Assembly (NCBI GenBank): GCA_965219955.1
Contig: OZ244799.1
Span: 832,001-896,000 of the forward strand
Direction: 5' to 3'
DNA: 64,000 bases
Source of the DNA: a bacterium
Lineage (GTDB): Bacteria > UBA8248
Below the pieces are notes generated by a model. It was not told the origin of the DNA. It was given only the letters and a program-made list of their open reading frames with translations, and made no database searches. The position numbers and the translations under genes are program-made. Below, in pieces: positions 3,132-57,340 of this stretch. Each line of letters opens with the position of its first letter. The stretch's first letter is position 1.

Positions 3132-3959
3132 TTATTTCCTTCTCGCCTGTTGAATCATTCGGGTGAGTTGTGCCGAGGTGAGCGCGCCCGGGAACATTTG
3201 ATCGCCGACAACAAAGGCGGGTGTGCCGCGTATTCCTAGAGAACGCGCCAAAGCGTGGTTCTTGGTAACCTGAGCCTGGATGCCGGGCGCTTGCATGTCT
3301 TTTTTCAGACGGGCCGTGTCGATGCCCACGGTGGCGGCGATTTTCATGATGCTCGCTTCATCATAAGAGATTTTGGCCTTCATAAGAGCCTTGTGAAAAA
3401 CCAGATATTTGCCCTGCGCGCGCGAGGCGAGCGCCGCCCGGGCCGCCAATACGGAATTGGGCCCCAGGACAGGGAATTCCTTGTAGACGAGGCGGATTTT
3501 CTTGTCCTTCGCGAGCGCAGCCTCCACAACAGGGGCCACCCGCTTGCAATACCCGCACCGGTAATCGAAAAACTCCACAATCGTCACGTCCCCGTTGGGG
3601 TTCCCGCCCACGGGGTCTTCGGGGTCCGCATAGATTTGTTTCCTGTTTTTCTGAATGGAAGTCCGGGCCGCAGCCAGGCGCATTGCTTCCCGCTTTGCCT
3701 GTAGGGCTCGTATGGCTTCTTCGAGCACTTCGGGGTTGTTGATGAGATATTCTCTGATAATTTTCTCGATGCGCTTTTTCTCGAGGCTTTGCGCCACGAG
3801 GGTGGGGGCGGGCGCTGCTTTCGGTTTCGCTTCCGGGGGGGTGAGTGCGACTGCGTGGTTTTTATCTTTTTGGCTGTTCGCGGATGGAAGCAGGAAAACG
3901 CCTGAGAAGATCATGGCGCCCGCAAGCAATATGGCGATGAAACCCGGTTTTTTCGACAT
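3132..3959 (-). CDS. DsbA family (ScsC/Com1-like) thiol-disulfide oxidoreductase
   Basis: Signal peptide, EYLINNPEVL helix, EFFDYRCGYC, GIRGTP cis-Pro loop. Confidence 0.9.
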   Translation of the reverse strand: MSKKPGFIAILLAGAMIFSGVFLLPSANSQKDKNHAVALTPPEAKPKAAPAPTLVAQSLEKKRIEKIIREYLINNPEVLEEAIRALQAKREAMRLAAARTSIQKNRKQIYADPEDPVGGNPNGDVTIVEFFDYRCGYCKRVAPVVEAALAKDKKIRLVYKEFPVLGPNSVLAARAALASRAQGKYLVFHKALMKAKISYDEASIMKIAATVGIDTARLKKDMQAPGIQAQVTKNHALARSLGIRGTPAFVVGDQMFPGALTSAQLTRMIQQARRK

Positions 3960-9363: not shown

Positions 9364-10809
9364 GTGGACAGCGCTGGATTCATTCAAAAGCTGACGGATG
9401 CGGTGGGGGAGGAATTTATCCATACCGATCCGGTGGCGCTCAGGACGTATGATTGCGACGGCCTCACGATTTACAAGGGCATCCCCTCGGCCGTCGTTTT
9501 GCCGGAAACCACCGAAGAAGTCAGCCAAATCGTGGGAATCTGCCGCGAGTATCGCGTACCCCTGATTGCCAGAGGAGCGGGAACGGGCCTCTCCGGTGGC
9601 GCGACGCCCCTGCCGGGCGGTGTGCTCATCGTCTTCACGCGGATGAACAAGATTCTGGAACTCGACTACGTGAACCGCCTCGCGCGCGTGCAGCCGGGGG
9701 TAGTGAACCTCCACCTCTCCCACGAGACGCTGCCGCATGGCTTTCATTACGCGCCCGATCCTTCCAGCCAGGCGGCCTGCACCATCGGCGGCAACACGGC
9801 GGAAAATGCCGGCGGCGCGCATTGCCTGAAATACGGAATGACGACGAACCACATCCTGGAAATGACCGTCGTCTTGCCGACGGGTGAGGTGGTGCACCTG
9901 GGCGCGGACGGGGAGGATTCACCGGGTCTGGATCTGCGCGGTTTCTTCGTTGGTTCGGAGGGCACCTTTGCCGTCATCACGGAACTCATCGTGCGGCTCA
10001 CGCCGAATCCCGAGAGCGTGCGCACCATGCTCGCGTGTTTCGCCCAGGTGGGGGATGCCTGCCGGACGGTGAGCGACGTCATAGCGGCAGGCGCCGTGCC
10101 CGCCGCAATGGAGTTGATGGATCGCTACACCATCGAGGCGGTCGAGACTGTGGTTCAGGCGGGTTACCCCAAAGACGCCGAGGCCGTCTTGCTGATCGAA
10201 CTCGACGGCCTGCCGTCTTCCATTAAACCGCTCGAGACTCTCATTCGCGATATAAGCGAGAAGAACAATTGTTCCTCGTTCCGGATCGCGCAGACGGAAG
10301 AAGAGCGCGAGGGCCTTTGGATGGGCCGGAAAAAGGCGTTCGGAGCCTTCGGGGTAATCGCGCCTACCTACTACTGTCTCGACGGCACGGTTCCCCGCTC
10401 GAAGCTGGCGCAGGTGCTCGAGGAGTTCGACGAGATATCCGCCCGCTATAATTTGCGCATCACCAACGTGTTTCATGCCGGAGACGGGAGCCTGCATCCC
10501 AACGTCTTGTTCGACGATCGAGTGCCCGGAGAAACGGAGCGGGCAATTGAATGCGGCTCGGAGGTGCTTCGCGCTTGCATCCGGGCCGGGGGCGTTCTTT
10601 CCGGCGAGCACGGCATCGGCATCGAGAAGATCAGAGAGATGAAGGACCAGTTCGACGAACCCACGCTCGAGATCATGGAGCGCGTGCGTGACGCCATCGA
10701 CGAAGATGGCTTGATGAACCCCGGCAAACTCATACCCGATGAGGAAAACGTGTTCCCCGTCGCTCTCGGCGGCGCCGTCGCCCGGATGGGCGGGGGAATG
10801 ACGAAGTAG
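9364..10809 (+). CDS. glcD: Glycolate oxidase subunit GlcD (FAD-linked oxidase)
   Basis: ARGAGTGLSGG, PDPSSQAACTIGGN, LSGEHGIGIEK, MNPGK. Confidence 0.92.
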   Translation: MDSAGFIQKLTDAVGEEFIHTDPVALRTYDCDGLTIYKGIPSAVVLPETTEEVSQIVGICREYRVPLIARGAGTGLSGGATPLPGGVLIVFTRMNKILELDYVNRLARVQPGVVNLHLSHETLPHGFHYAPDPSSQAACTIGGNTAENAGGAHCLKYGMTTNHILEMTVVLPTGEVVHLGADGEDSPGLDLRGFFVGSEGTFAVITELIVRLTPNPESVRTMLACFAQVGDACRTVSDVIAAGAVPAAMELMDRYTIEAVETVVQAGYPKDAEAVLLIELDGLPSSIKPLETLIRDISEKNNCSSFRIAQTEEEREGLWMGRKKAFGAFGVIAPTYYCLDGTVPRSKLAQVLEEFDEISARYNLRITNVFHAGDGSLHPNVLFDDRVPGETERAIECGSEVLRACIRAGGVLSGEHGIGIEKIREMKDQFDEPTLEIMERVRDAIDEDGLMNPGKLIPDEENVFPVALGGAVARMGGGMTK

Positions 10810-10816
10810 GAAAGCC

Positions 10817-12196
10817 ATGGCCCTCAAACTCGATTCTTTCGCCCAATCCATAGAAACAGATTTTGGCGATTCCGTTCTGTGGTCGGATGAGAGGGCGGAG
10901 TCTTTCAGGCTGGGGGGTAAAGCGCCCTCGGTCGTGGTGAGCCCCGCCGACCACGAAACCTTATGCCGCGTACTCTCGCGCGCGAATGAAGCGGGTCTGG
11001 CCGTATTCCCCTGGGGGGGAGGCACAGGCAGCGGGACGGGATATGTGCCCGAGAGGTACGACGTGGTGCTCTCTCTGGAGCGTATGTCGAAGGCGGTGGA
11101 GTTTTTGAAAGACGATCTCACCGCCGTCGTCGAGGCGGGAATGAGCGTCGAGGACCTCGATAGGTTGACGGGCGCCGAGGGCCAGACGGCGGGTCTCGAC
11201 CCCCCGCATCCAGGAACCTCCACGGTGGGGGGAACCATCATCGCGGATCGTTCAGGCCCCATGCGGGTGCGCTGGGGCAAGGCGCGCGACCGCGTGATGC
11301 GCATGAAGGTGGCGCTGGCCGATGGCGCGACTCACACCTATGGCGCGCTGGTGGTGAAAAACGTCACCGGCTACGACATGAACCGCCTCCTGTCGGGAAG
11401 CTGGGGGACGTTGGCCGTCGTTACCGAGTTGGCGATTCGTCTCTACAAGGCTCCCGAGCACATTGGAGCGAGAGCGGCTTCTTTTCCATCCACAGACGCA
11501 GCGTTCAAAGCGGCCAGGGCGCTGATGGCCTCGCCCCTCATGCCCATTTGGGCGGAAGTGCTGGACGATGCGCGCATCGCCTCGCCGGCATCGGGCGGCG
11601 ACATCGCCTTGCCCGGCCCCGTCAGCCTGGTGGCTTCTTTCGGGGATTTTGAGGAAGGGCTGAAAGATCAACTGGCCCGCTTCGAGGAAATCCTCGCGAA
11701 AGAGGGCGGAGACAATATCTTGCGCCTCGACGATGAGACAACTTCGCGCCTGGGCCGCACCCTGGCCGATCCGCCAGGAGGAGATTTCTCCGGTCCCGAA
11801 GTGCTCACTCTCAGAGCCGCGGGCCGTCTCGATCAGTTGCCCCGTTTCGCTGAGGCGGCGAGGCGCGCCGCCGAATCGGGGAAATACTGTTTCGCCATTT
11901 CAGCGCACGCGGGAAGCGGCGTTTTGCGTTGCTGGCTCGCGCCGGAGGATGAAGAATGCTCACCACTCGAGGCGTGGCGCGTTTTCAATTCTCTTTGCAG
12001 GGAAGGCAGGGATGAATCGCAAGCCCGCTCTGTTCACCTGCGCCTAGATTCCGGGCCGCACTCGCTCAAAGAGCAGATTTCCGTATGGGGTGAAGACGTG
12101 CTCGAACCCGGGGCGCTCCAGGTGATGCGCAACATCAAGAAAACCTATGACCCCAAAGGGATTTTGAGTCCCGGCCGCTTCGTGGACCGGATGTAG
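10817..12196 (+). CDS. glcE: Glycolate oxidase FAD-binding subunit GlcE
   Basis: VVKNVTGYDM, GSWGTL, YDPKGILSPGR; lies between glcD and glcF. Confidence 0.88.
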   Translation: MALKLDSFAQSIETDFGDSVLWSDERAESFRLGGKAPSVVVSPADHETLCRVLSRANEAGLAVFPWGGGTGSGTGYVPERYDVVLSLERMSKAVEFLKDDLTAVVEAGMSVEDLDRLTGAEGQTAGLDPPHPGTSTVGGTIIADRSGPMRVRWGKARDRVMRMKVALADGATHTYGALVVKNVTGYDMNRLLSGSWGTLAVVTELAIRLYKAPEHIGARAASFPSTDAAFKAARALMASPLMPIWAEVLDDARIASPASGGDIALPGPVSLVASFGDFEEGLKDQLARFEEILAKEGGDNILRLDDETTSRLGRTLADPPGGDFSGPEVLTLRAAGRLDQLPRFAEAARRAAESGKYCFAISAHAGSGVLRCWLAPEDEECSPLEAWRVFNSLCREGRDESQARSVHLRLDSGPHSLKEQISVWGEDVLEPGALQVMRNIKKTYDPKGILSPGRFVDRM

Positions 12197-12210
12197 GAGG
12201 AAAGCCCTAA

Positions 12211-13566
12211 GTGGCCACGGATCAAAAAGCAGGTTTCGCGCAGGTTTTTCCCGAATACGAAAACCCCTTCGTCGGCCCGGACGCTCCCGACAGGGAGATG
12301 ATTCAGCGTTGTATCCATTGCGGGTTCTGCGGCACGAGTTGCCCCACCTTCACGCTGCTCGGCAACGAGATGGACTCCCCGCGCGGGAGAATCTATCTCA
12401 TGCGCATGGTGACGGACGGCGAGATGGCCCCGAACGAGACGGTGATGAAACACCTCGATCGCTGCCTGGACTGCCGCGCCTGCGAGACGGCGTGCCCATC
12501 GGGCGTACCCTATGGCTCCTTGATCGAGGCGGCGCGCGAAGGACTCGAAAAAGTGCGAAAACGTCCCCTATCGGTTCGGATTTTGAGGAGAATCCTCTTC
12601 CGCTGGCTGTTGCCGAACAGGGTGTTGCTCAACCTGGCGGGCGTAGCCACCCGGCTGTACCAGACCACGTTTTTGAAAAGCATGGTGAGGGGCCTGGGTC
12701 TTTTGCCCAAAAAGCTGGCCGAACTCGAACCCATGATGCCCGAAGCCCCGCCCGTATCCTCGATGAGGGCTCTTCCTGCGGAAGTAGCGGCCATTGGCGA
12801 GGAAAAATACCGCGTCGCCTTCTTCGGCGGCTGCATTCAATCCACCCTGTTCGGCGACGTGAACAGGGCCGCCATACGCGCGTTGGCGGCGAACGGGGTG
12901 CGCGTCGTGTTTCCCGCCTCGCAGACCTGCTGCGGCGCGTTGCAGGCCCATGCCGGAGACAGGGAGGCGGCGAGAATCCTCGCGCGCGAGAACATAGACG
13001 CCATCGACGCGGGCGGGTTCGACGCCGTCGTCCTGGCCGTCTCCGGTTGCGGGGCGATGCTGCATGAATATAAGGATTTGCTCGCGGAGGATCCCGTCTA
13101 CGCGAGCCGGGCCGAGGCGTTCAGTGAGAAGGCGATGGACGTCACCGTGTTTCTCTCCAGAATCGGGGTCCGGGAAGCTGCGCACCCCGAGCCCCGGAAA
13201 ATCGCGTATCACCATCCCTGCCATCTTTTCCACGCGCTCAAGGTCCGCAAGGAGCCGCTCGAGGTTCTTTCCGCTATCCGCAACGTCGAGTCGGTGCCTC
13301 TCAAGGAGAGCGATTGGTGCTGCGGCTCCGCCGGCAGCTACAACCTCACGCAGACGGAGATTTCCATGCAGCTTCTCGACAGGAAAATGGGGCACGTGAA
13401 GGACTCCGAAGCGCCCGTAGTCTGCACGGGCAATCCTGGTTGTCAGATTCAAATCGCGTTCGGCGCTCGCGAGCGGGGCATGGACCTTCGGGTGGTGCAT
13501 CCCGTCGTCCTGCTCGACGAGGCGTATGAGGCGGAAGGCGTGTACCGGAACGCGACCCTTCCATAA
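12211..13566 (+). CDS. glcF: Glycolate oxidase Fe-S subunit GlcF
   Basis: CIHCGFC..CP, CLDCRACETACPSGV, two CCG domains. Confidence 0.92.
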   Translation: MATDQKAGFAQVFPEYENPFVGPDAPDREMIQRCIHCGFCGTSCPTFTLLGNEMDSPRGRIYLMRMVTDGEMAPNETVMKHLDRCLDCRACETACPSGVPYGSLIEAAREGLEKVRKRPLSVRILRRILFRWLLPNRVLLNLAGVATRLYQTTFLKSMVRGLGLLPKKLAELEPMMPEAPPVSSMRALPAEVAAIGEEKYRVAFFGGCIQSTLFGDVNRAAIRALAANGVRVVFPASQTCCGALQAHAGDREAARILARENIDAIDAGGFDAVVLAVSGCGAMLHEYKDLLAEDPVYASRAEAFSEKAMDVTVFLSRIGVREAAHPEPRKIAYHHPCHLFHALKVRKEPLEVLSAIRNVESVPLKESDWCCGSAGSYNLTQTEISMQLLDRKMGHVKDSEAPVVCTGNPGCQIQIAFGARERGMDLRVVHPVVLLDEAYEAEGVYRNATLP

Positions 13567-16968: not shown

Positions 16969-17844
16969 ATGGCCGATTCGGTGCGAAAAAAATTCAGAAA
17001 AATTCTTGAACGGCCGGGGGCGACGATCATCCCCGGAGCGCATGACGCGCTGACGGCCAGGCTCATCGCCTCCAAGGGATTCGAGGCCGTGTATATGTCC
17101 GGGGCGGGCGTGGTGAACGCCCTCGCGGGGTTGCCCGACAACGGCTTGGCGTCATTCAGCGAAGTGCTCATGAACGCGAGGTATATGGCCGACGCCGTGG
17201 ACATCCCGCTTGTGGTGGACGTGGATACCGGCTACGGCAACGCGGTGAACGTCGTGCGCACGGTGCGTGATTTCGAGAGGGCGGGCGTTGCGTGCATCCA
17301 AATTGAAGATCAGGCGCTGCCGAAACGCTGCGGCCATCTGGACGGCAAGCAGGTGGTGAGCCGTGAGGAGTTTATTGGGAAAATCCGCGCCGCCGTGGAT
17401 CATCGAACGGATCCGGATTTCGCTATCATGGCTCGAATCGACGCCAAATATGTCTACGGGATGGATGAGGCCGTCGAAAGAGGCAATGCAGCGCTGGAAG
17501 CCGGAGCGGACGTCATATTCATCGAGGCGCTCGAAACGCGCGATGAGTTCACCGAGTACGCCGAGCGCTGCCCGGGTCCTCTGCTCGCCAACATGACGGA
17601 GTTCGGCAAGACGCCTCATGTCTCAAAAGCGGATTTCGGGGAGATGGGTTACAAACTCGTCCTGTTTCCGGTGAGCATCATGCGCGCGATGCTCAAGGCG
17701 GGCGAATTGCTGCTCGACGAATTAAAGGCCAAGGGCACGATGGCGGATTATCTGGGCAACATGATGACGCGCAAAGAACTTTACCGGCTCCTCGATTATG
17801 ACGCCTATCACGCGATAGAAGCAGAATATCTGCCCAGGGAATGA
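16969..17844 (+). CDS. prpB: Methylisocitrate lyase (ICL/PEP mutase family)
   Basis: DVDTGYG, EDQ..PKRCGH, LANMTEFGKTP. Confidence 0.85.
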   Translation: MADSVRKKFRKILERPGATIIPGAHDALTARLIASKGFEAVYMSGAGVVNALAGLPDNGLASFSEVLMNARYMADAVDIPLVVDVDTGYGNAVNVVRTVRDFERAGVACIQIEDQALPKRCGHLDGKQVVSREEFIGKIRAAVDHRTDPDFAIMARIDAKYVYGMDEAVERGNAALEAGADVIFIEALETRDEFTEYAERCPGPLLANMTEFGKTPHVSKADFGEMGYKLVLFPVSIMRAMLKAGELLLDELKAKGTMADYLGNMMTRKELYRLLDYDAYHAIEAEYLPRE

Positions 17845-17851
17845 GGTCAGA

Positions 17852-19216
17852 ATGAACGGCCACACGCGCGAACTCGCACGATTCATCAGCGAGACGTCCT
17901 ATGGTGATTTATCCGAGAACCTGCGCGCCTGCATGCGCAAGTATTTCCTGGACGCCGTCGGTTGCGGACTCTACGGCACGACCACCGAATCGGGACGCAT
18001 ACTGTCACGCTTCATCCAGGAACAAGGCGGAAGCGCGGAGGCCACCCTTTGGAAAAACGCCTGGCGCGGGCCGGTGGGGCCCGTGGCGCTTTGTCTGGGC
18101 ACCTGGATGCACGCGTTCGAACTCGATGATTACCACAGCGGCGCCAAGCTCCACCCGGGCGCAGTGGTCTTCGCCGCCGCATATCCGCTCGCCGAGAAGA
18201 TGAAGGTCGATGGCAGGACGTTTATTACCGCCTGCGTCGTCGGCTATGAAACGATGATCCGCGCGAGCATCGCCGCGGACTGTCTCGAGGTCCGCAGGCG
18301 GGGCTTTCATCTCACGGGCCTGTGCGGTCCCTTTGGAGCCGCTGCCGCCGCGGCGCACCTGATGAAATTAACCCCCGAGCTGACGGCCAACGCATTGGGT
18401 TTAGCGGGAACCCAGGGGGCGGGCACATGGGCCTTTCAGTGCGATGGTTCCGAGACGAAGCGTTTTCACGCGGGCCGCGCGGCCCAAAGCGGCCTCCTGG
18501 CCGCCGCTTTGGCGGAGGGGGGCTATACGGGCCCCAAGGAGATTTTCGAGTACGAAGACGGCGGGTTCATCCGGGCGTTCAGCGGCTGCGGAGACCCTGA
18601 GCCGCTGACGAGAGGCTTGGGTGATCATTGGGAGACGGAGGGTGTCTCCTTCAAGCCCTATTGCTGCTGCGGCAGCACCCACTCGACCATCGACGCCGTT
18701 CTCGCCCTGCGCAGGGAGCATGGCGTCGCGCCCGATGACGTACAGGAAATGGAGATCATGAACCACAGCGTGGTGAAACAGCAGTGTTCCTGGCGTTATG
18801 AGCCGGTGAGTTCGCTGCGCGCGCAGATGAACATCGAGTATTGCGCCGCGGTCGCGCTCACCGACGGGAAGGCGGGACCCGGGCAGTTCACGCCAGAGCG
18901 CATCGCCGACCCGGAGCTCGTAGCGCTGGCGCGCCGGGCGCGCTTCACGGTGGACCCTGAAATCGAGAAACTCTACCCCAAAACTTTTCCGGCGAAAGTA
19001 GCGATCCGAACCCATGATGGCCGTGAGTTCAATAGCCGCGTCGCCGGCCCCAAGGGCTCGCCCCAGAACCCGATGGATTTCGACATGGTGGCGGGGAAAT
19101 TCAGACAGATTACGGGCGGCGTGATTTCGTCCGCTTCTCAAGACGCTTTGGTGGAGGTTGCTTCGGGTCTCGATGATATCGAGGCGATGGGCGCCCTGGT
19201 GGCGCATCTCGCCTAG
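17852..19216 (+). CDS. MmgE/PrpD family protein
   Basis: HAFELDD, LHPG, RGFH, KRFHAG, FKPYCCC. Confidence 0.92.
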   Translation: MNGHTRELARFISETSYGDLSENLRACMRKYFLDAVGCGLYGTTTESGRILSRFIQEQGGSAEATLWKNAWRGPVGPVALCLGTWMHAFELDDYHSGAKLHPGAVVFAAAYPLAEKMKVDGRTFITACVVGYETMIRASIAADCLEVRRRGFHLTGLCGPFGAAAAAAHLMKLTPELTANALGLAGTQGAGTWAFQCDGSETKRFHAGRAAQSGLLAAALAEGGYTGPKEIFEYEDGGFIRAFSGCGDPEPLTRGLGDHWETEGVSFKPYCCCGSTHSTIDAVLALRREHGVAPDDVQEMEIMNHSVVKQQCSWRYEPVSSLRAQMNIEYCAAVALTDGKAGPGQFTPERIADPELVALARRARFTVDPEIEKLYPKTFPAKVAIRTHDGREFNSRVAGPKGSPQNPMDFDMVAGKFRQITGGVISSASQDALVEVASGLDDIEAMGALVAHLA

Positions 19217-19248
19217 GGCCGGGCCGGATTCTGGATCAGGAGAAGAAG

Positions 19249-20625
19249 ATGGAAACGATGAGCGACAAACTGGCGCGTTTCGCCGCCGGCTTATCTTACG
19301 AGGATATTCCCGGACAGGTGATCGAAAAGGCGAAGCTCCATCTTTTGGACGCCCTGGGGATAGGCCTTGCCGCAACGAGGGAGGCCTACGCCGATGCGGT
19401 GACGAAAACGGCGCGCGATTGGGGCGGCAATCCCCAGGCCACCGTATGGCGCTACGGTGACAGGCTCCCCGTCGCTCACGCCGCCATGGTGAACGGCAGC
19501 TACGTGCACGGGCTTGATTTCGACGATACGCATACGGATTCCATCACCCACATGAGCGCCTGCGTGGTGCCGACGGCGCTGGCCGCGGGCGAGGCCGCCA
19601 GCGCGAGCGGGCGGGATATCCTCGCGGCCATGGTGGCGGGCTATGAGGTCATCGCCAGAATCGGGGGCGCGGTGCCGGGTGCGTTTCACGCCGAGGGCTA
19701 TCACGCCACCCCGATATGCGGCGCCTTTGGCGCGGCGGCCATCATGGGGCGTCTGATGAACCACTCGCCCGAAGCCATCGCCAACGCCTTCGGCGTGTGC
19801 GGGAGCCAGGCGGCGGGGATTCAGGAGTTCTTGGACGATGGAAGCTGGGTGAAGCGCTTTCACCCGGGCTGGGCTTCCCATGCGGGCGTTACCGCCGCGC
19901 AGATGGCGGGCCACGGGTTCATGGGCCCCCGAAAAGTCCTGGAGGGCAGGTTCGGTCTATATGCGACGCACTTGAGCGACCCGGCCTACGACGCGGAAAT
20001 CCTGGCGGGCGGACTCGGCGAGCGCTGGGAGACGCTGCGGATTTCGTTCAAGCCCTATCCTTGCTGCCATTTCAATCACGCGGCGATGGATGCGGCGAAA
20101 AACCTGGTGCGCGAGGCGGGCATATCCATTGATGAGATCGATGAGATCGAGACCATCACGCCCGAGCCGATCCTCCACATCGTGTGCGAGCCCATCGAGC
20201 ACAAGCGAAGGCCCAACACGCAGTATGCGGCCTTGTTCAGTCTGCCCTATTGTCTGGCCGTCAACGTGGTGAAGGGCCGAGCCACGCTCGATGATTTCGA
20301 GGAAAAACATCTGGGCGACGCTCAGGTGCTCGAACTGGCCGGTAAGGTGAGGTGCACGGGCGTGGAATCGGACAGGTTCCCCAAATACCTGCATGGCGGC
20401 GTGAGGATGGCGCTCAAGGACGGCCGCGTCCTGGAGCGCGATGAGCCCGTCAACTGGGGCAATCCCGAAAACCCGATGGAATGGGCGGACGTCGAGGCGA
20501 AGTTCCGGGGGAACGCGGGCCGCGTCCTGCCGGAGCGCAAGGTCGTTTCCGCCGTGGAGGCCGTCATGGGGTTCGAGAAGGCGCCCGGCGCAGACGCCTT
20601 GATGAACGCTTGCAAGGCGGCCTGA
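19249..20625 (+). CDS. MmgE/PrpD family protein
   Basis: HGLDFDDTH, GYH, KRFHPG, FKPYPCC. Confidence 0.92.
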   Translation: METMSDKLARFAAGLSYEDIPGQVIEKAKLHLLDALGIGLAATREAYADAVTKTARDWGGNPQATVWRYGDRLPVAHAAMVNGSYVHGLDFDDTHTDSITHMSACVVPTALAAGEAASASGRDILAAMVAGYEVIARIGGAVPGAFHAEGYHATPICGAFGAAAIMGRLMNHSPEAIANAFGVCGSQAAGIQEFLDDGSWVKRFHPGWASHAGVTAAQMAGHGFMGPRKVLEGRFGLYATHLSDPAYDAEILAGGLGERWETLRISFKPYPCCHFNHAAMDAAKNLVREAGISIDEIDEIETITPEPILHIVCEPIEHKRRPNTQYAALFSLPYCLAVNVVKGRATLDDFEEKHLGDAQVLELAGKVRCTGVESDRFPKYLHGGVRMALKDGRVLERDEPVNWGNPENPMEWADVEAKFRGNAGRVLPERKVVSAVEAVMGFEKAPGADALMNACKAA

Positions 20626-28151: not shown

Positions 28152-28267
28152 GCCTGACTCACCAGGCGCTCGCGGCGCGAGGTGGTTCTCCTCCACAGAA
28201 TCGACAAAATTATGAAAATGGATTAGCTTTCCTTCTCGTCATTCATCTTTTCACAGGAGGTTGATAG

Positions 28268-28906
28268 ATGCAGAAAGAAGACTATATCGACAGGCCGCCT
28301 GGCCCTCTCGGGGGTTTGTGGAGCATGTGGTACCTGGACCCGTTTCTGATGATCAAGCGCGAGTTGAGCGGGTTCAGAAAGGTCCGCCACAAGGCGTTCG
28401 AGGATCAGCTGAAACCCGGCCAGCCCGCGCCTCCGGTGAAACTCCAGAGCACGTCTGGAGAAACCGTGGACCTGGCCGATTTTCGCGGGAAGAAGAACGT
28501 GGTCCTGGAGTTCGGCGCCATTACGTGACCGCCCTTCCGCCGGCAGGTGCCGGGCATGGACGAACTGCATGAGCGCTACAAGGACAAGGACGTCGAGTTC
28601 TTCGTCGTCTATTCCAAGGAACCTCACGCGCAGGAGCGCAAGTATTTCAAAAAATACACCCAGCACACCTCCTTCGAGCACAAGATGGGCTACGCAAAGG
28701 AATTGGTGGCCGAATTCGGCATGAAAATCCCCGTTCTGGTGGACGACGTCGACGAGGCGGTGGTGAACGCCTACGGGCGCATGCCGAACATGGTCTTCGT
28801 CATCGACAAGGAGGGGAACATCGCCTACAAGGCGAGCTGGACGGAGCAGCCCCGGGTCGACCGGGTGATCGATGAACTACTCGCCGAGCAGGCCGTTTCG
28901 GCTTAA
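28268..28906 (+). CDS. Iodothyronine deiodinase-like selenoprotein (Sec87 encoded by UGA 28526-28528)
   Basis: Two in-frame ORFs are joined by a single TGA, reading EFGAIT-U-PPF, with YSKEPH and AYGRMP downstream. AhpC/TSA-like N-half; SECIS-like hairpin follows the UGA. Confidence 0.9.
28529..28560 (+). promoter_or_regulatory. Bacterial SECIS-like element
   Basis: 11 nt after the UGA: CCGGC-AGGT-GCCGG hairpin with GU in the apical loop. Confidence 0.75.
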
Positions 28907-28918
28907 GCGAAGCGGAAG

Positions 28919-28952
28919 AAAAAAGGCGGCTCCTCGGGGCCGTCTTTTTTTT
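28919..28952. terminator. Bidirectional intrinsic terminator
   Basis: AAAAAAGGCGGCTC-ctcg-GGGCCGTCTTTTTTTT. Confidence 0.85.
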
Positions 28953-37109: not shown

Positions 37110-38513
37110 ATGGCGGGTCGTTTCGTGGTCGAAAACGCCTGCGTCCTCACTCAGAACGAGGCGCGTGATGTGCTCCCCCGCGCGTCGGTGCTGGTCGAGG
37201 ATGGCCGGGTCGCCGAGATCTCTGAATCCAGCATAGACGCAGGCGCGGCAGAGGTGATCGACGGCGAGGACATGGCCCTCATGCCGGGGCTGGTAAACGC
37301 CCACAGCCACATCATGTGCATTCTTTTGCGCGGCGGCCTGGGCGCGGATAGGCGGCTCATGGACTGGCGCCTGAACGTCATGGCGCCCGGCCAGGTCGCC
37401 TATACGCCCGGGGATGCGGCGCTCTCCGTCAAGCTCTTCGCGTGCGAAGCGATTCGCTCCGGCACCACGGCGGTGGTGACGAACGAGCGGGTCCCCATCC
37501 CGCTGGCCGAGGCGATGATAGAGGCCATGGACGATTCGGGCATGCGGAGCGTCTTCGCCTTATGCTTCAACGAAATGTCTCCTTCGGGAAAACTCGCCGA
37601 GCGGGCGCACTCCCACATCGCCGCCTGGGGGAAGACCTTTCCGCCGAGTCTCAAGACGAGGGATGAGGTGTTCGAGGAGACTTCCCACCTGGTGGACAAA
37701 TACCACGGTCGCTCCGGTGGCCGGGTTCTCGTCTGGCCGGGGCCGAACATCCCCGTCTACGTGAAGCCCGAGACATTCCGCGAGGTGGACGAATGGGCCG
37801 GCGAGCGCGGCCTTCGCGTCTCCACGCACGTATCGGAAGACCCCATGGAATCAGAAGTGGGCGGCCTTCCCGTGGTGCAGCACCTGGCGGCCTGGGGTCT
37901 GCTCTCGGAGCGTCTCGTCGCCGGCCACTGCATTCACTTGAGCGAGGAGGACATACGCCTCCTCAAGGAATCAGGTACGCAGGCCGTGCATCTGCCCTCT
38001 AGCAATATGTATCTGGGTTCGGGCGTCTCGCCGGTGCCGCGCATGCTGGGCTACGGCATCCCCGTGGCGCTCGGCACGGACAATGCGAACTGCAACGACC
38101 TCGTCAACATGTTCTGGGAGATAAGGCTCGCCTGCCTGCTCCACAAGGGCGTGCAGCAGGACCCCGCAGCCATCACGGCGCAGCAGGTGCTCGACATGGC
38201 CACGCGCAACGGCGCTCGCGCTCTCGGCCTGGAAGAAGAAATCGGGAGCATCGAGGTGGGCAAGCGGGCGGATATGATTCTGCTCGACATGAGCGGCCCC
38301 CACATGCACCCGAATCATCATCTGCCGTCCGTGCTCGCGTACCAGACCCACGGGACGGAAGTGCGCTGGGTCTGGGTGGAAGGCGAGCCGCTCATGGAAG
38401 CGGGACGCCTGAGCAGGATAAGCGAAGATGAGGAACGCGCGATTCGCGGGGAGGCGCAGGCGGCGTCCGCGGCTATCGTCGAGCGAGCGGGCCTGATTGT
38501 CCCCGGGACATGA
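37110..38513 (+). CDS. Amidohydrolase (MTA/SAH deaminase / triazine hydrolase-like)
   Basis: PGLVNAHSH, THVSE, GHCIH, GTD, GSIEVGKRAD. Confidence 0.9.
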   Translation: MAGRFVVENACVLTQNEARDVLPRASVLVEDGRVAEISESSIDAGAAEVIDGEDMALMPGLVNAHSHIMCILLRGGLGADRRLMDWRLNVMAPGQVAYTPGDAALSVKLFACEAIRSGTTAVVTNERVPIPLAEAMIEAMDDSGMRSVFALCFNEMSPSGKLAERAHSHIAAWGKTFPPSLKTRDEVFEETSHLVDKYHGRSGGRVLVWPGPNIPVYVKPETFREVDEWAGERGLRVSTHVSEDPMESEVGGLPVVQHLAAWGLLSERLVAGHCIHLSEEDIRLLKESGTQAVHLPSSNMYLGSGVSPVPRMLGYGIPVALGTDNANCNDLVNMFWEIRLACLLHKGVQQDPAAITAQQVLDMATRNGARALGLEEEIGSIEVGKRADMILLDMSGPHMHPNHHLPSVLAYQTHGTEVRWVWVEGEPLMEAGRLSRISEDEERAIRGEAQAASAAIVERAGLIVPGT

Positions 38514-38561
38514 AACGGCGTTCGCCCATCGAGCGCCCTTGATGAATAAGGAGACTCAATC

Positions 38562-39668
38562 GTGTTTGATACCCAGGTGGTGAAGTTTCAGATGTCGGGA
38601 CCCGAGGACGTCTCGGGTCTTGCGGAAGCGGTGGCGGAAGGCCGCATTCAGGCGGCGGACATTCAGGCCATCATCGCCAAGACCGAAGGCAACGGCCGGG
38701 TGAACGACTATTCGAGGCCATACGCGCTCCATTCCTTCGAGGATTACATGATGGAGAAGCTGGGCCTCTCCCGCGCCGAGGTGCAGGGCATGTGCGCCAT
38801 GGTGATGTCGGGTGGCTGCGAGGGGATCATGAGCCCCCACGCGGTGGCCATTTCCAAGACGGACGTGGGCGACGCCGAAGGCCCCGGCGAGAAGCGCCTC
38901 TCCATGGGGGTCGCCTTCACCAGGGAGCTTCTGCCCGAGGAGTTGGGCACGATGGCGCAGGTGGACTTGGTGGCCGAGGCGGCGGAGGAGGCGCTCGCAA
39001 AGGCGGGCGTGGATTCGCTGGATGATGTGGGCTACGTGCAGGTGAAGTGCCCGCTTTTGACGTCGGACCGCATCAACGACGCGGCCTCGCGTGGCAAGAA
39101 GGTGGTGAGTACGGACACCACGCGCTCGATGAGCCTGTCGAACGGGTGCTCGGCTCTGGGTGCTGCGGTGGGCATCGGGGAGATCGACAGGGCGTCGTTC
39201 GAGATAACCGACGTGTGCAGCCGGGGCGACCTGTATTCGGAGATGATCTCCTGCTCGGCGGGCGTGGAACTCATGCGTTCGGAAGTCGTCGTCCTGGCGA
39301 ATTCCTCCCAATCGGTGAGCCGCTACAAGATCGGCCGGGCGGTGATGCAGCACCTGATCGACGCCGACGCCGTGAGGCAGGCGCTCAAAAACGCAGGGCT
39401 CGCCTTCGAAGGCCTGCCGGGTGCGGATGATTTGAGCAGGGTTGTGCACGCGTTCGCGAAAGCCGGCGCGCCCTGGGACGGCAGGCTTCTGGGCAAGCGC
39501 GTCACGCTGCTCACGGATTCCGTTCTGGGCACGCGGCCCGTGCGCGCCGTGGCGAACGCCGTAATCGCGTCGGTGGTGCAGGACCCGGCGGTCTACGTCT
39601 CGGCCGGTCTCGTCTTCCACCAGGGTCCCGTGGGCGGAGGGGTGGTTTCCGCCATCATCGAGGCGTAG
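38562..39668 (+). CDS. Ring-opening amidohydrolase (cyanuric acid hydrolase AtzD / barbiturase family)
   Basis: KTEGNG.VND, MSGG.EG, KCPLLT, CSAG, HQGP.GGG. Confidence 0.92.
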   Translation: MFDTQVVKFQMSGPEDVSGLAEAVAEGRIQAADIQAIIAKTEGNGRVNDYSRPYALHSFEDYMMEKLGLSRAEVQGMCAMVMSGGCEGIMSPHAVAISKTDVGDAEGPGEKRLSMGVAFTRELLPEELGTMAQVDLVAEAAEEALAKAGVDSLDDVGYVQVKCPLLTSDRINDAASRGKKVVSTDTTRSMSLSNGCSALGAAVGIGEIDRASFEITDVCSRGDLYSEMISCSAGVELMRSEVVVLANSSQSVSRYKIGRAVMQHLIDADAVRQALKNAGLAFEGLPGADDLSRVVHAFAKAGAPWDGRLLGKRVTLLTDSVLGTRPVRAVANAVIASVVQDPAVYVSAGLVFHQGPVGGGVVSAIIEA

Positions 39669-56023: not shown

Positions 56024-57340
56024 ATGAAACGCAGGGATTTTCTTCTGGCGTTGGCGGCGACGGCGCTGGCCCCCGCGAGCGGATGGGCGGCGCCCGCAGG
56101 TTTCCGTCTCAAGGCCGAGCCCGTCACCGCCCGTCTCCTGCCTGAGGGGCAAGGGGTGACGCGGATGCTCGGGTTCAACGGGTCGACGCCGGGCCCCGAA
56201 ATCCGCGCCCGCCAGGGCGGCCGGATAGCCGTCGCCTTCGAGAACGGAATCGACAGCGCTTCCGCCATCCACTGGCACGGCATCCATATCGACAACGCGA
56301 TGGACGGGGTGCCGGGCCTCACCCAGGCGGCGGTCGAGCCGGGCGAAATGTTCGACTACGCCTTCGACGTATCCCATCCCGGCACCTACTGGTACCACTC
56401 GCACGAGCGCTCCTGGGAGCAGGTGGCGAAGGGACTCTACGGCCCTCTGATCATCGAGGAGCGCGACCCCCCGCGCGTCGACCGCGACATCATGGTGATT
56501 ATCGACGACTGGCGCCTCACGCGCGGCGGCGAATTGCGCGCAAACTTCGGCAACCGGCACGACTTCTCCCATGACGGGCGGATCGGCAACTTCGCGCGCG
56601 CGCTCGTCTCGCGCGAAGCGGTAAGGCGCGGCGACCGGGTTCGCCTGCGGCTGATCAACACGGCGACGGCCCGGATTTTCCCGGTGCGGATCTCGGGCGG
56701 CGCGGGCAAGGTCGTGGCGCATGACGGCATGCCGCTCGCGACGCCCGAGCCGCTCGGCGAACTCGTCCTCGCCCCCGCGCAGCGGACCGACGTCATCCTC
56801 GACGTGGCGGAGCCCGTCACCTTCGCCATGTTGATTCGGGAGGGAGCCTACGAACTCGGCAAAATAGAGGCGGAAGGCGCGAACCCCGCGCCCGTCAAAA
56901 CCCCGATCGCGCCGCTTCCGCCGCACGCCGCCCCGGCGCCCGATCGCAAAAGGGCGCGGCGGCTGACGCTCGCCATGCAGGGCGGCGCGATGAGCCGGAT
57001 GGGCATGACGGGCATGATGCGCGGCGGGGATTTCTGGGCCTTCAACGGCCGCTCCGGCTTGCCGCGCGCGCCCTGGCAGCGCTTCGAGCGCGGCGAGACG
57101 GCGCTGATCACGATGCGCAACGACACCGCTTTCCCGCACGGCATCCACATCCACGGCCACCACTTCCACGAACTCGACGAGAACGGCGCGCCCGGCCATT
57201 ACCGCGACACCACCCTGGTCGACCCGCGCCGGCGGCGGGACGTCCTCTGCGTGTTCGACAACCCCGGCAAGTGGCTGATCCACTGCCACACGCTGGCCCA
57301 CCAGGCGTCGGGCATGAAGACCTGGGTCGAGGTCGTTTGA
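56024..57340 (+). CDS. Multicopper oxidase, Tat-exported
   Basis: KRRDFL, HWHG, WYHSH, HGIHIHGH, HCHTLAH...GM. Confidence 0.95.
   Translation: MKRRDFLLALAATALAPASGWAAPAGFRLKAEPVTARLLPEGQGVTRMLGFNGSTPGPEIRARQGGRIAVAFENGIDSASAIHWHGIHIDNAMDGVPGLTQAAVEPGEMFDYAFDVSHPGTYWYHSHERSWEQVAKGLYGPLIIEERDPPRVDRDIMVIIDDWRLTRGGELRANFGNRHDFSHDGRIGNFARALVSREAVRRGDRVRLRLINTATARIFPVRISGGAGKVVAHDGMPLATPEPLGELVLAPAQRTDVILDVAEPVTFAMLIREGAYELGKIEAEGANPAPVKTPIAPLPPHAAPAPDRKRARRLTLAMQGGAMSRMGMTGMMRGGDFWAFNGRSGLPRAPWQRFERGETALITMRNDTAFPHGIHIHGHHFHELDENGAPGHYRDTTLVDPRRRRDVLCVFDNPGKWLIHCHTLAHQASGMKTWVEVV

Follow-up and report, generated by a model that had tools for sequence, protein, structure and literature searches.

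A predicted deiodinase-like selenoprotein without cysteine in a bacterium of the lineage UBA8248

The window, a 64-kb stretch of DNA (64,000 nucleotides; contig OZ244799.1, positions 832,001 to 896,000) from a bacterium of the GTDB lineage UBA8248, contains a plus-strand frame of 212 codons at 28268–28906 whose sole in-frame TGA, codon 87 (28526–28528), lies in the context EFGAIT-stop-PPF. A listing of open reading frames under table 11 splits this frame into 28268–28528 and 28547–28906. Translation of 28268–28906 as a whole agreed with the sequence-only reading, in which the two listed frames were one, broken by the TGA at 28526. The gene and its features are as follows.

28201..28229, + strand: candidate sigma-70-like promoter, TCGACA - 17 nt - TAGCTT (8/12 consensus, under the scanner's threshold)
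28255..28260, + strand: ribosome-binding site AGGAGG, 7 nt before the ATG
28268..28906, + strand: coding sequence of a predicted 212-aa deiodinase-like selenoprotein of thioredoxin fold (PF00837, AlphaFold2 model), ending in TAA
28268..28408, + strand: clade-specific N-terminal extension, aa 1-47, with an RPPGP motif, short aromatic helices and a basic amphipathic helix
28517..28537, + strand: active-site motif A84-I85-T86-U87-P88-P89-F90, equivalent to mouse Dio3 S167-C168-T169-U170-P-P-F
28526..28528, + strand: in-frame TGA, predicted to be read as selenocysteine U87
28540..28553, + strand: bacterial SECIS hairpin CCGGC-AGGT-GCCGG, with its loop 16 nt after the UGA, frozen synonymous sites and a passing model
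28610..28666, + strand: deiodinase insertion (omega loop) Y115, E118, H120 ... Q132, H133, equivalent to Dio3 Y197, E200, H202, Q218, H219
28781..28792, + strand: M172-P173-N174-M175 loop, with Asn in place of Dio3 Glu259 and of the catalytic Arg of peroxiredoxins
28838..28840, + strand: W191, at Dio3 Arg275 (carboxylate clamp) in the profile alignment
28917..28952, + strand: intrinsic terminator hairpin of 16 bp, with an A-run before and a T-run after, facing a convergent MFS gene

The gene stands alone, with its own putative promoter and terminator and without catabolic neighbours. T-GACA and TA---T are invariant across 17 aligned upstream regions, in which the spacer varies, and the element at 28201–28229 may act as the promoter. 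The ribosome-binding site and the terminator that the sequence-only reading had assigned to the gene are both present. A GGAG-type motif lies 5′ of most relatives too, and the terminator hairpin has a fold z-score of −2.47 (2/200 shuffles were equally good) and keeps its pairing across relatives (95.4% of 108 cells paired); it is absent from the list of the consensus scanner.

To compare the TGA site across genomes, we scanned GTDB genomes once, using patterns taken from the C-terminal half, and obtained 67 loci. The site is covered by 71 distinct related genes from 48 genomes, the window gene and a duplicated HSP in L066 being excluded. TGA occupies it in 68 of these, TGT, TGC and TGG in one each (2 Cys, 1 Trp). 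All 56 genes of more than 50% identity, the window's included, carry TGA (56/56, down to 56% identity), whereas Cys predominates among 149 more distant representatives (120 of the 136 that cover the site). Over 17 orthologs, dN/dS is 0.053 before the TGA and 0.077 after it, indicating that both halves of the gene are under purifying selection. Because 16/72 genes use TGA as their terminal stop, a code in which TGA means Trp or Gly is ruled out. TGA is Gly in translation table 25 and Trp in table 4, and the Gly and Trp seen at the site in two single-sequence database proteins (P0002 and P0004, respectively) are probably gene-caller readings.

A hairpin starts 11 nt past the TGA, as the sequence-only reading had pointed out. 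In place of that reading's comparison with E. coli fdhF, we took the published bSECIS consensus (PMC13188914) as the standard and applied it as an approximation of the published model, not as bSECISearch: a loop of 3–9 nt with G in its two initial positions, a stem of at least 4 bp, a distance of 16–37 nt from the UGA and an MFE of −7.5 or below. The window hairpin passes at −8.3 kcal/mol and 16 nt. By itself it is weak evidence: folding z-scores of the region are unremarkable (+0.4 to +1.3), and 159/1826 TGA triplets in the window pass the same approximate model, 20 of them with a loop at 16–18 nt. Its conservation is what convinces. Among 63 conserved four- or six-fold columns, the five lowest values of synonymous divergence (0.04–0.08, against a median of 0.53) fall on codons 89, 91, 92, 94 and 96, and the Gln93 codon is CAG in 56/56 genes. 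The model is passed by 60/68 TGA genes against 6.6 expected after synonymous recoding, a ratio that overstates the odds because related genes are not independent. Both Cys genes fail it, and the TGG gene passes. Distant genes have other stem sequences at the same position; because the pairing register shifts from one subgroup to another, a pair count in a single register gives a mixed result (65.7% paired).

ARAGORN and Rfam detected no Sec machinery within the window, and 60 of the 67 loci likewise gave no tRNA-Sec with ARAGORN. Searches covering part of 389 ORF families showed no sel gene among 55 window and 68 locus ORFs (NCBIfam, best five families) or among 70 further ORFs (Pfam). The lineage itself is represented in BSepDB, whose Table 2 credits FO_M_Nitrospinota_01 (GTDB UBA8248) with 54 selenoprotein genes and which restricted its screening to genomes having two or more of selA/selB/selD (PMC13326102). 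Two of our loci, L017 and L051, come from that genome, and L017 holds a 76%-identical ortholog with the same neighbours; the closest relatives of the window gene are 93–98% identical. The window probably comes from the same lineage as FO_M_Nitrospinota_01, one of the richest in selenoproteins, which suggests that Sec here need not signal special chemistry. The 76% ortholog may already be in BSepDB; neither the term 'deiodinase' nor any of six isolate names has a match in the part of its supplement consulted, a part without the family table. Judged by eye, 357 read-through candidates in the window and flanks included no other convincing selenoprotein. One ORF considered, at window 3132-3959 (-), encodes a DsbA/DsbG-like protein with kinship to a (seleno)lipoprotein family; as a selenoprotein it was rejected, since it is the Cys form with CxxC and has no TGA.

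These data leave a chance close to negligible that the gene is not a selenoprotein, being instead a pseudogene, two separate genes or a frame in which TGA means Trp or Gly. Such a reading can draw on the TGG paralog (L067:4044), on the residues in P0002 and P0004 and on the failure to find sel genes in the window or the flanks examined. It has to contend with a TGA kept throughout the clade, selection on both halves, the dominance of Cys homologs, the genes that end on TGA and the loss of the SECIS from both Cys genes. The sequence-only reading of a selenoprotein is therefore upheld by the conserved TGA set against Cys homologs, by selection on both halves and by conservation of the SECIS, and UGA87 is almost certainly recoded to selenocysteine through this bacterial element.

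The protein matched PF00837 with an E-value of 2.3e-20 (73.4 bits against a gathering cut-off of 27) and has both the T-U/C-P motif and the YxxExH insertion, which together confirm its earlier placement in the deiodinase-like family. The best NCBIfam match, the deiodinase family protein NF038285 (E 7e-32), spans positions 179-325 of the 347-position model and at 111 bits lies under the cut-off of 250; 105/106 aligned relatives match the same model. NF002854, our test for TlpA/ResA, gave 63.7 bits against 170. A search with a 106-sequence profile ranked mouse Dio3 (1e-32) and Dio2 (1e-25) ahead of the next, TlpA-type, match (3e-18), while the top single-sequence matches are ResA/TlpA proteins and Foldseek ranks ResA first. 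An AlphaFold2 model (mean pLDDT 93, pTM 0.91) matched Dio2 at Z 18.9 and Dio3 at Z 18.1, both over 162 residues, and thiol-disulfide oxidoreductases at Z 17-18 over 135-149 residues, which amounts to a tie. The model thus predicts a thioredoxin/peroxiredoxin-type fold with a deiodinase insertion and a single redox residue. In a 202-row tree built by a quick method the clade is supported (11 rows, SH-aLRT 97); because this tree holds no animal sequences and its deep forks are open, we make no claim on the origin of animal deiodinases.

The gene is a further member of a family known since 2005. Bacterial deiodinase-like selenoproteins were described by Zhang et al. (PMC1088965) and appear in later accounts (PMC9312934, PMC13188914), the latter of which, a 2026 review, calls such proteins largely uncharacterised. 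Our literature searches, which left most subscription papers outside their scope, returned no assay of a bacterial family member. The window protein shares with the family PF00837, the motif T-U-P-P-F-R-x-Q with its UGA, a downstream bacterial SECIS and YxxExH. The founding members from the Sargasso Sea read SYT-U-PPFRxQ (PMC1088965 supplement), and those shown there likewise have no Cys at −2 or +3 (PMC1088965). The window protein differs from the family in having Ala rather than Ser at −3, Ser116, the RPPGP extension and no Cys, and in keeping His133. Reviews tabulate the family motif as UxxC (PMC9312934, PMC13188914), a motif found neither in the window protein (UPPF) nor in the Sargasso members shown; because the founding members also lack it, UxxC does not define the family.

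The animal enzymes DIO1-3 (Dio3 4TR3/4TR4, Dio2 9H48) share fold and insertion with the model (Z 18-19, 162 residues, rmsd ~3), together with the Sec position, at 24-27% identity in structural alignments. With Dio3 numbering checked against PMC11592359 and PMC12025243, Dio3 Thr169, Sec170, Tyr197, Glu200, His202 and His219 are kept as T86, U87, Y115, E118, H120 and H133, so that all proton-relay residues of deiodinases (Thr, Tyr, Glu, His, His) are present; the residues of the insertion are invariant in the clade. Unlike the animal enzymes, the window protein has no transmembrane anchor and no proximal or distal Cys, and its SECIS lies within the coding region. Ser167 and Cys168 of Dio3 are replaced by Ala84 and Ile85, Cys239 has no counterpart, Phe258-Glu259 become Pro173-Asn174 and Arg275 becomes Trp191; with Asn174 and Trp191, thyronine side-chain binding by Glu259 and Arg275/Lys241 has no equivalent here. 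Glu259 and Arg275 of the animal enzymes are proposed to bind thyronine by its amino and carboxyl groups (PMC12025243, PMC11592359). Among 147 relatives with Glu118, Asn174 is found in 126, Trp191 in 121 and His133 in 76, and the thyronine clamp appears to be missing family-wide. More distant representatives have N at the Asn174 position in 65 matches and R, the peroxiredoxin type, in 36. To judge by these alignments, the catalytic core is deiodinase-like and the thyronine clamp is not.

The sequence-only reading had noted that Ala-Ile precedes Sec, that the protein has no Cys and that no internal resolving thiol is available, and this is correct throughout: Cys is absent from the whole protein, as it is from 52/56 clade genes. 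The trait is family-wide (Cys at −2 in 2/147; Tyr there in the 2005 members), and the missing neighbouring Cys is not new to this gene, because the 2005 Sargasso members also lack one. Published work on animal enzymes gives some measure of these changes. The serine at −3 of DIO1 is dispensable: S123A, which is the Ala84 state, lowered activity without abolishing it, whereas T125A and H174Q were dead (PMC9141512). According to the same source, DIO1 without its proximal Cys could no longer be recycled by glutathione but could be by DTT (PMC9141512). Dio2, also without a proximal Cys, may make very few turnovers. Across relatives, Ala84 (28517-28519) accompanies Ser116 (28613-28615) in 18/22 against 6/125; Ser116 may thereby restore, from the neighbouring strand, the hydroxyl of the active site, though relatedness confounds the correlation.

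A peroxiredoxin signature comprises a PxxxT/SxxC motif and a catalytic Arg. The window protein has L80-E-F-G-A84-I-T-U87 in place of the motif and Asn174 in place of the Arg, and U-P-P-F/Y is present in all clade genes, none of which has CxxC. It shares the core fold with 1-Cys peroxiredoxins (AhpE, Bcp; Z 16-18), as well as a lone redox residue where helix 1 begins, and shares the core fold also with TlpA/ResA oxidoreductases (Z 16-18). These proteins in turn lack the deiodinase insertion.

Fourteen positions of the N-terminal extension are at least 98% invariant across the 56 clade genes (R9, P10, P11, G12, P13, G16, W18, S19, Y22, D24, G35, R37, R40 and F44), and its helices are predicted at pLDDT 67-92. 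The extension could form a lid, a dimer interface or a peripheral membrane patch; in animal deiodinases, whose activity requires a homodimer, a linker stabilises the active dimer. The sequence-only reading called the protein soluble. In support of this, it has no transmembrane helix (best 19-residue hydropathy 0.86), and solubility is likely, though tempered by the conserved aromatic and basic helices of residues 13-47.

Neighbourhoods are conserved among genes of at least 70% identity (n=24), with a GNAT gene upstream in 21 and the convergent MFS gene downstream in 23; clade neighbours overall are GNAT, dehydrogenase and MFS transporter genes. The ORFs scanned include no clade-linked gene for a dehalogenase, for ring cleavage, for a reductant or for a regulator, and no plasmid matched at E 1e-12. 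A second paralog of ~62% identity is located elsewhere, at least two copies are retained in 19/36 clade genomes, and each paralog group has its own conserved promoter-like motif and terminator. After the second paralog, at L032:11552-13372 and in 19 loci like it, come genes for an SsuD-like flavin monooxygenase (331 bits, below the cut-off of 510) and a flavin reductase-like protein. We considered an operon of paralog and monooxygenase at these 20 loci but dropped it, since a conserved terminator hairpin stands between the two. The fusion partners of distant members are EF-hand, LTXXQ, HMA, DoxX, Trx, esterase or methyltransferase domains, and the 54 longer representatives scanned contain no dehalogenation domain.

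Several single loci deserve record. At L067:2890-7475, three deiodinase-like paralogs lie within 7.5 kb, in UxxC, UPPF and TGG (Trp) forms, the TGG paralog retaining a SECIS-like hairpin, with a C-terminal fragment and a GST-like fragment between paralogs. A glutathione S-transferase gene begins 28 nt past a distant Sec member at L066:10762-11382; with the fragment in L067 this makes two loci only, and glutathione S-transferase is a possible thiol partner. L045:10001-11489 and L054:10001-11483 carry tandem Sec paralogs whose identities to the window protein are 62% and 38%; the latter gene is extended at both its N- and C-terminus. A MerR-family regulator lies directly 5′ of a distant Sec member at L056:9387-9821, with a 4Fe-4S protein directly 3′. 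Mu-crystallin binds thyroid hormone in mammals, and an ornithine cyclodeaminase/mu-crystallin gene lies near a distant member at L057:11244-12380, in one locus and probably by chance. L033:15557-16525 encodes a retron-type reverse transcriptase (best NF038233, under cut-off). Elsewhere in the window are a glcD/E/F-like glycolate oxidase cluster (9364-13566), a PrpB-like lyase followed by two MmgE/PrpD-family genes (16969-20625), and a TRZ/ATZ-family amidohydrolase adjoining a cyanuric acid amidohydrolase (AtzD, 398.7 bits against 360; 37110-39668), two enzymes that may together open triazine or barbiturate rings. Multicopper oxidases include some of the bacterial iodide oxidases; the multicopper oxidase at 56024-57340 is 27 kb away from the gene.

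What reaction does such a protein catalyse? Our leading explanation, held tentatively and at somewhat under an even chance, is that the protein reduces a small electrophilic oxidant with its single selenol and depends on an outside thiol for recycling. This general or housekeeping detoxifying reductase would run a deiodinase-like half-reaction. The selenolate would attack a small oxidant at its electrophilic atom, the oxidant being a peroxide or a reactive halogen species (for example HOX, I2 or an N-halo compound); protonation of the leaving group would fall to the Thr86-Glu118-His133 network, supported by Tyr115 and His120, and the oxidised selenium would be re-reduced by a thiol or dithiol partner, which has to come from outside because the protein has no Cys. 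We infer the chemistry, the substrate class and the outside reductant alike. A general role is consistent with the separate promoter-like motifs and terminators of both paralog groups, with the GNAT, dehydrogenase and MFS neighbours, with fusions free of dehalogenation domains and with the absent thyronine clamp; the discoverers, too, expected a function distinct from deiodination of thyroid hormone, possibly redox (PMC1088965). Other observations sit less well with it. The protein is not a canonical peroxidase, since it lacks the signature of peroxiredoxins (Leu80 and Ala84 replace Pro and Thr/Ser, and Asn174 replaces Arg); every residue essential in DIO1 is kept, including His133, which only 76/147 relatives have; no partner gene is linked within the clade; and the effect of proximal-Cys loss on glutathione recycling in DIO1 suggests that a simple outside monothiol may fall short.

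The sequence-only reading inferred a reductive dehalogenase of halogenated aromatics, which we consider rather unlikely. Here the selenolate would take I+ or Br+ from the aromatic through a halogen bond, with ring protonation by the relay. A halophenol or halogenated diphenyl ether would serve as substrate, rather than a halo-amino acid, and the N-terminal helices would be a lid or dimer interface. Relay and insertion are invariant in the clade, the DIO1 mutants show the loss of Ser to be tolerated and those of Thr and His not (PMC9141512), the longest structural matches are Dio2 and Dio3, neither the peroxiredoxin nor the CxxC signature fits, and several relatives' records point to marine water. 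But the structural lead over TlpA/ResA is a tie, the Glu259 and Arg275 equivalents are missing, and Tyr, Glu and His, being family-wide, may be structural anchors of the loop (PMC9141512). The Asn and Trp at the clamp positions argue specifically against iodo- or bromo-tyrosines. Aryl-Br and aryl-Cl bonds are described as poor substrates for selenolate mimics (PMC12025243), and a Dictyostelium null mutant of a deiodinase homolog is reported to keep normal DIF dechlorinase activity (PMC3205185). The clade has no catabolic neighbours or regulator, and with no dehalogenation or aromatic-catabolism gene linked to it, genomic context lends the claim no support; it stands as a lead only. A monothiol protein oxidoreductase, in the manner of monothiol glutaredoxins or TlpA variants, would clear mixed disulfides or sulfenic modifications from a target held by the extension. 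The ResA/TlpA matches, the relatives fused to Trx, HMA and DoxX domains and the UxxC form at L067:2890 fit this idea, which is nevertheless distinctly unlikely given the absence of CxxC, a 19-residue insertion that borders the active site as in deiodinases and suggests a small-molecule pocket, and a profile search that favours Dio2/3 by 7 to 14 orders of magnitude. Very unlikely is a stoichiometric scavenger or sensor whose selenol binds a soft metal or electrophile in a single turnover, as proposed for Dio2: the near-absence of Cys from the clade, the few turnovers of Dio2 and the MerR-family gene at L056 would suit it, but strong conservation of the relay, a MerR link confined to one locus and the lack of a stress regulator in the clade speak against it.

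The gain for annotation is real but modest: gene callers cut the clade's genes in two, and 53/111 hits of one search are C-terminal halves. As a test case the protein has several merits, with 212 aa, no transmembrane helix, no competing Cys, an intact relay and retained paralogs. One extended form of the dehalogenase reading, which we regard as unlikely, is a bacterial selenium dehalogenase for natural marine phenols or diphenyl ethers that are halogenated. It would combine the relay with an N-terminal helical lid where the animal enzymes have membrane anchor and linker, and would draw its resolving thiol from a separate protein. If true, it would give bacterial deiodinase-like proteins their first function and would provide a small soluble model for the origin of thyroid-hormone deiodinases.
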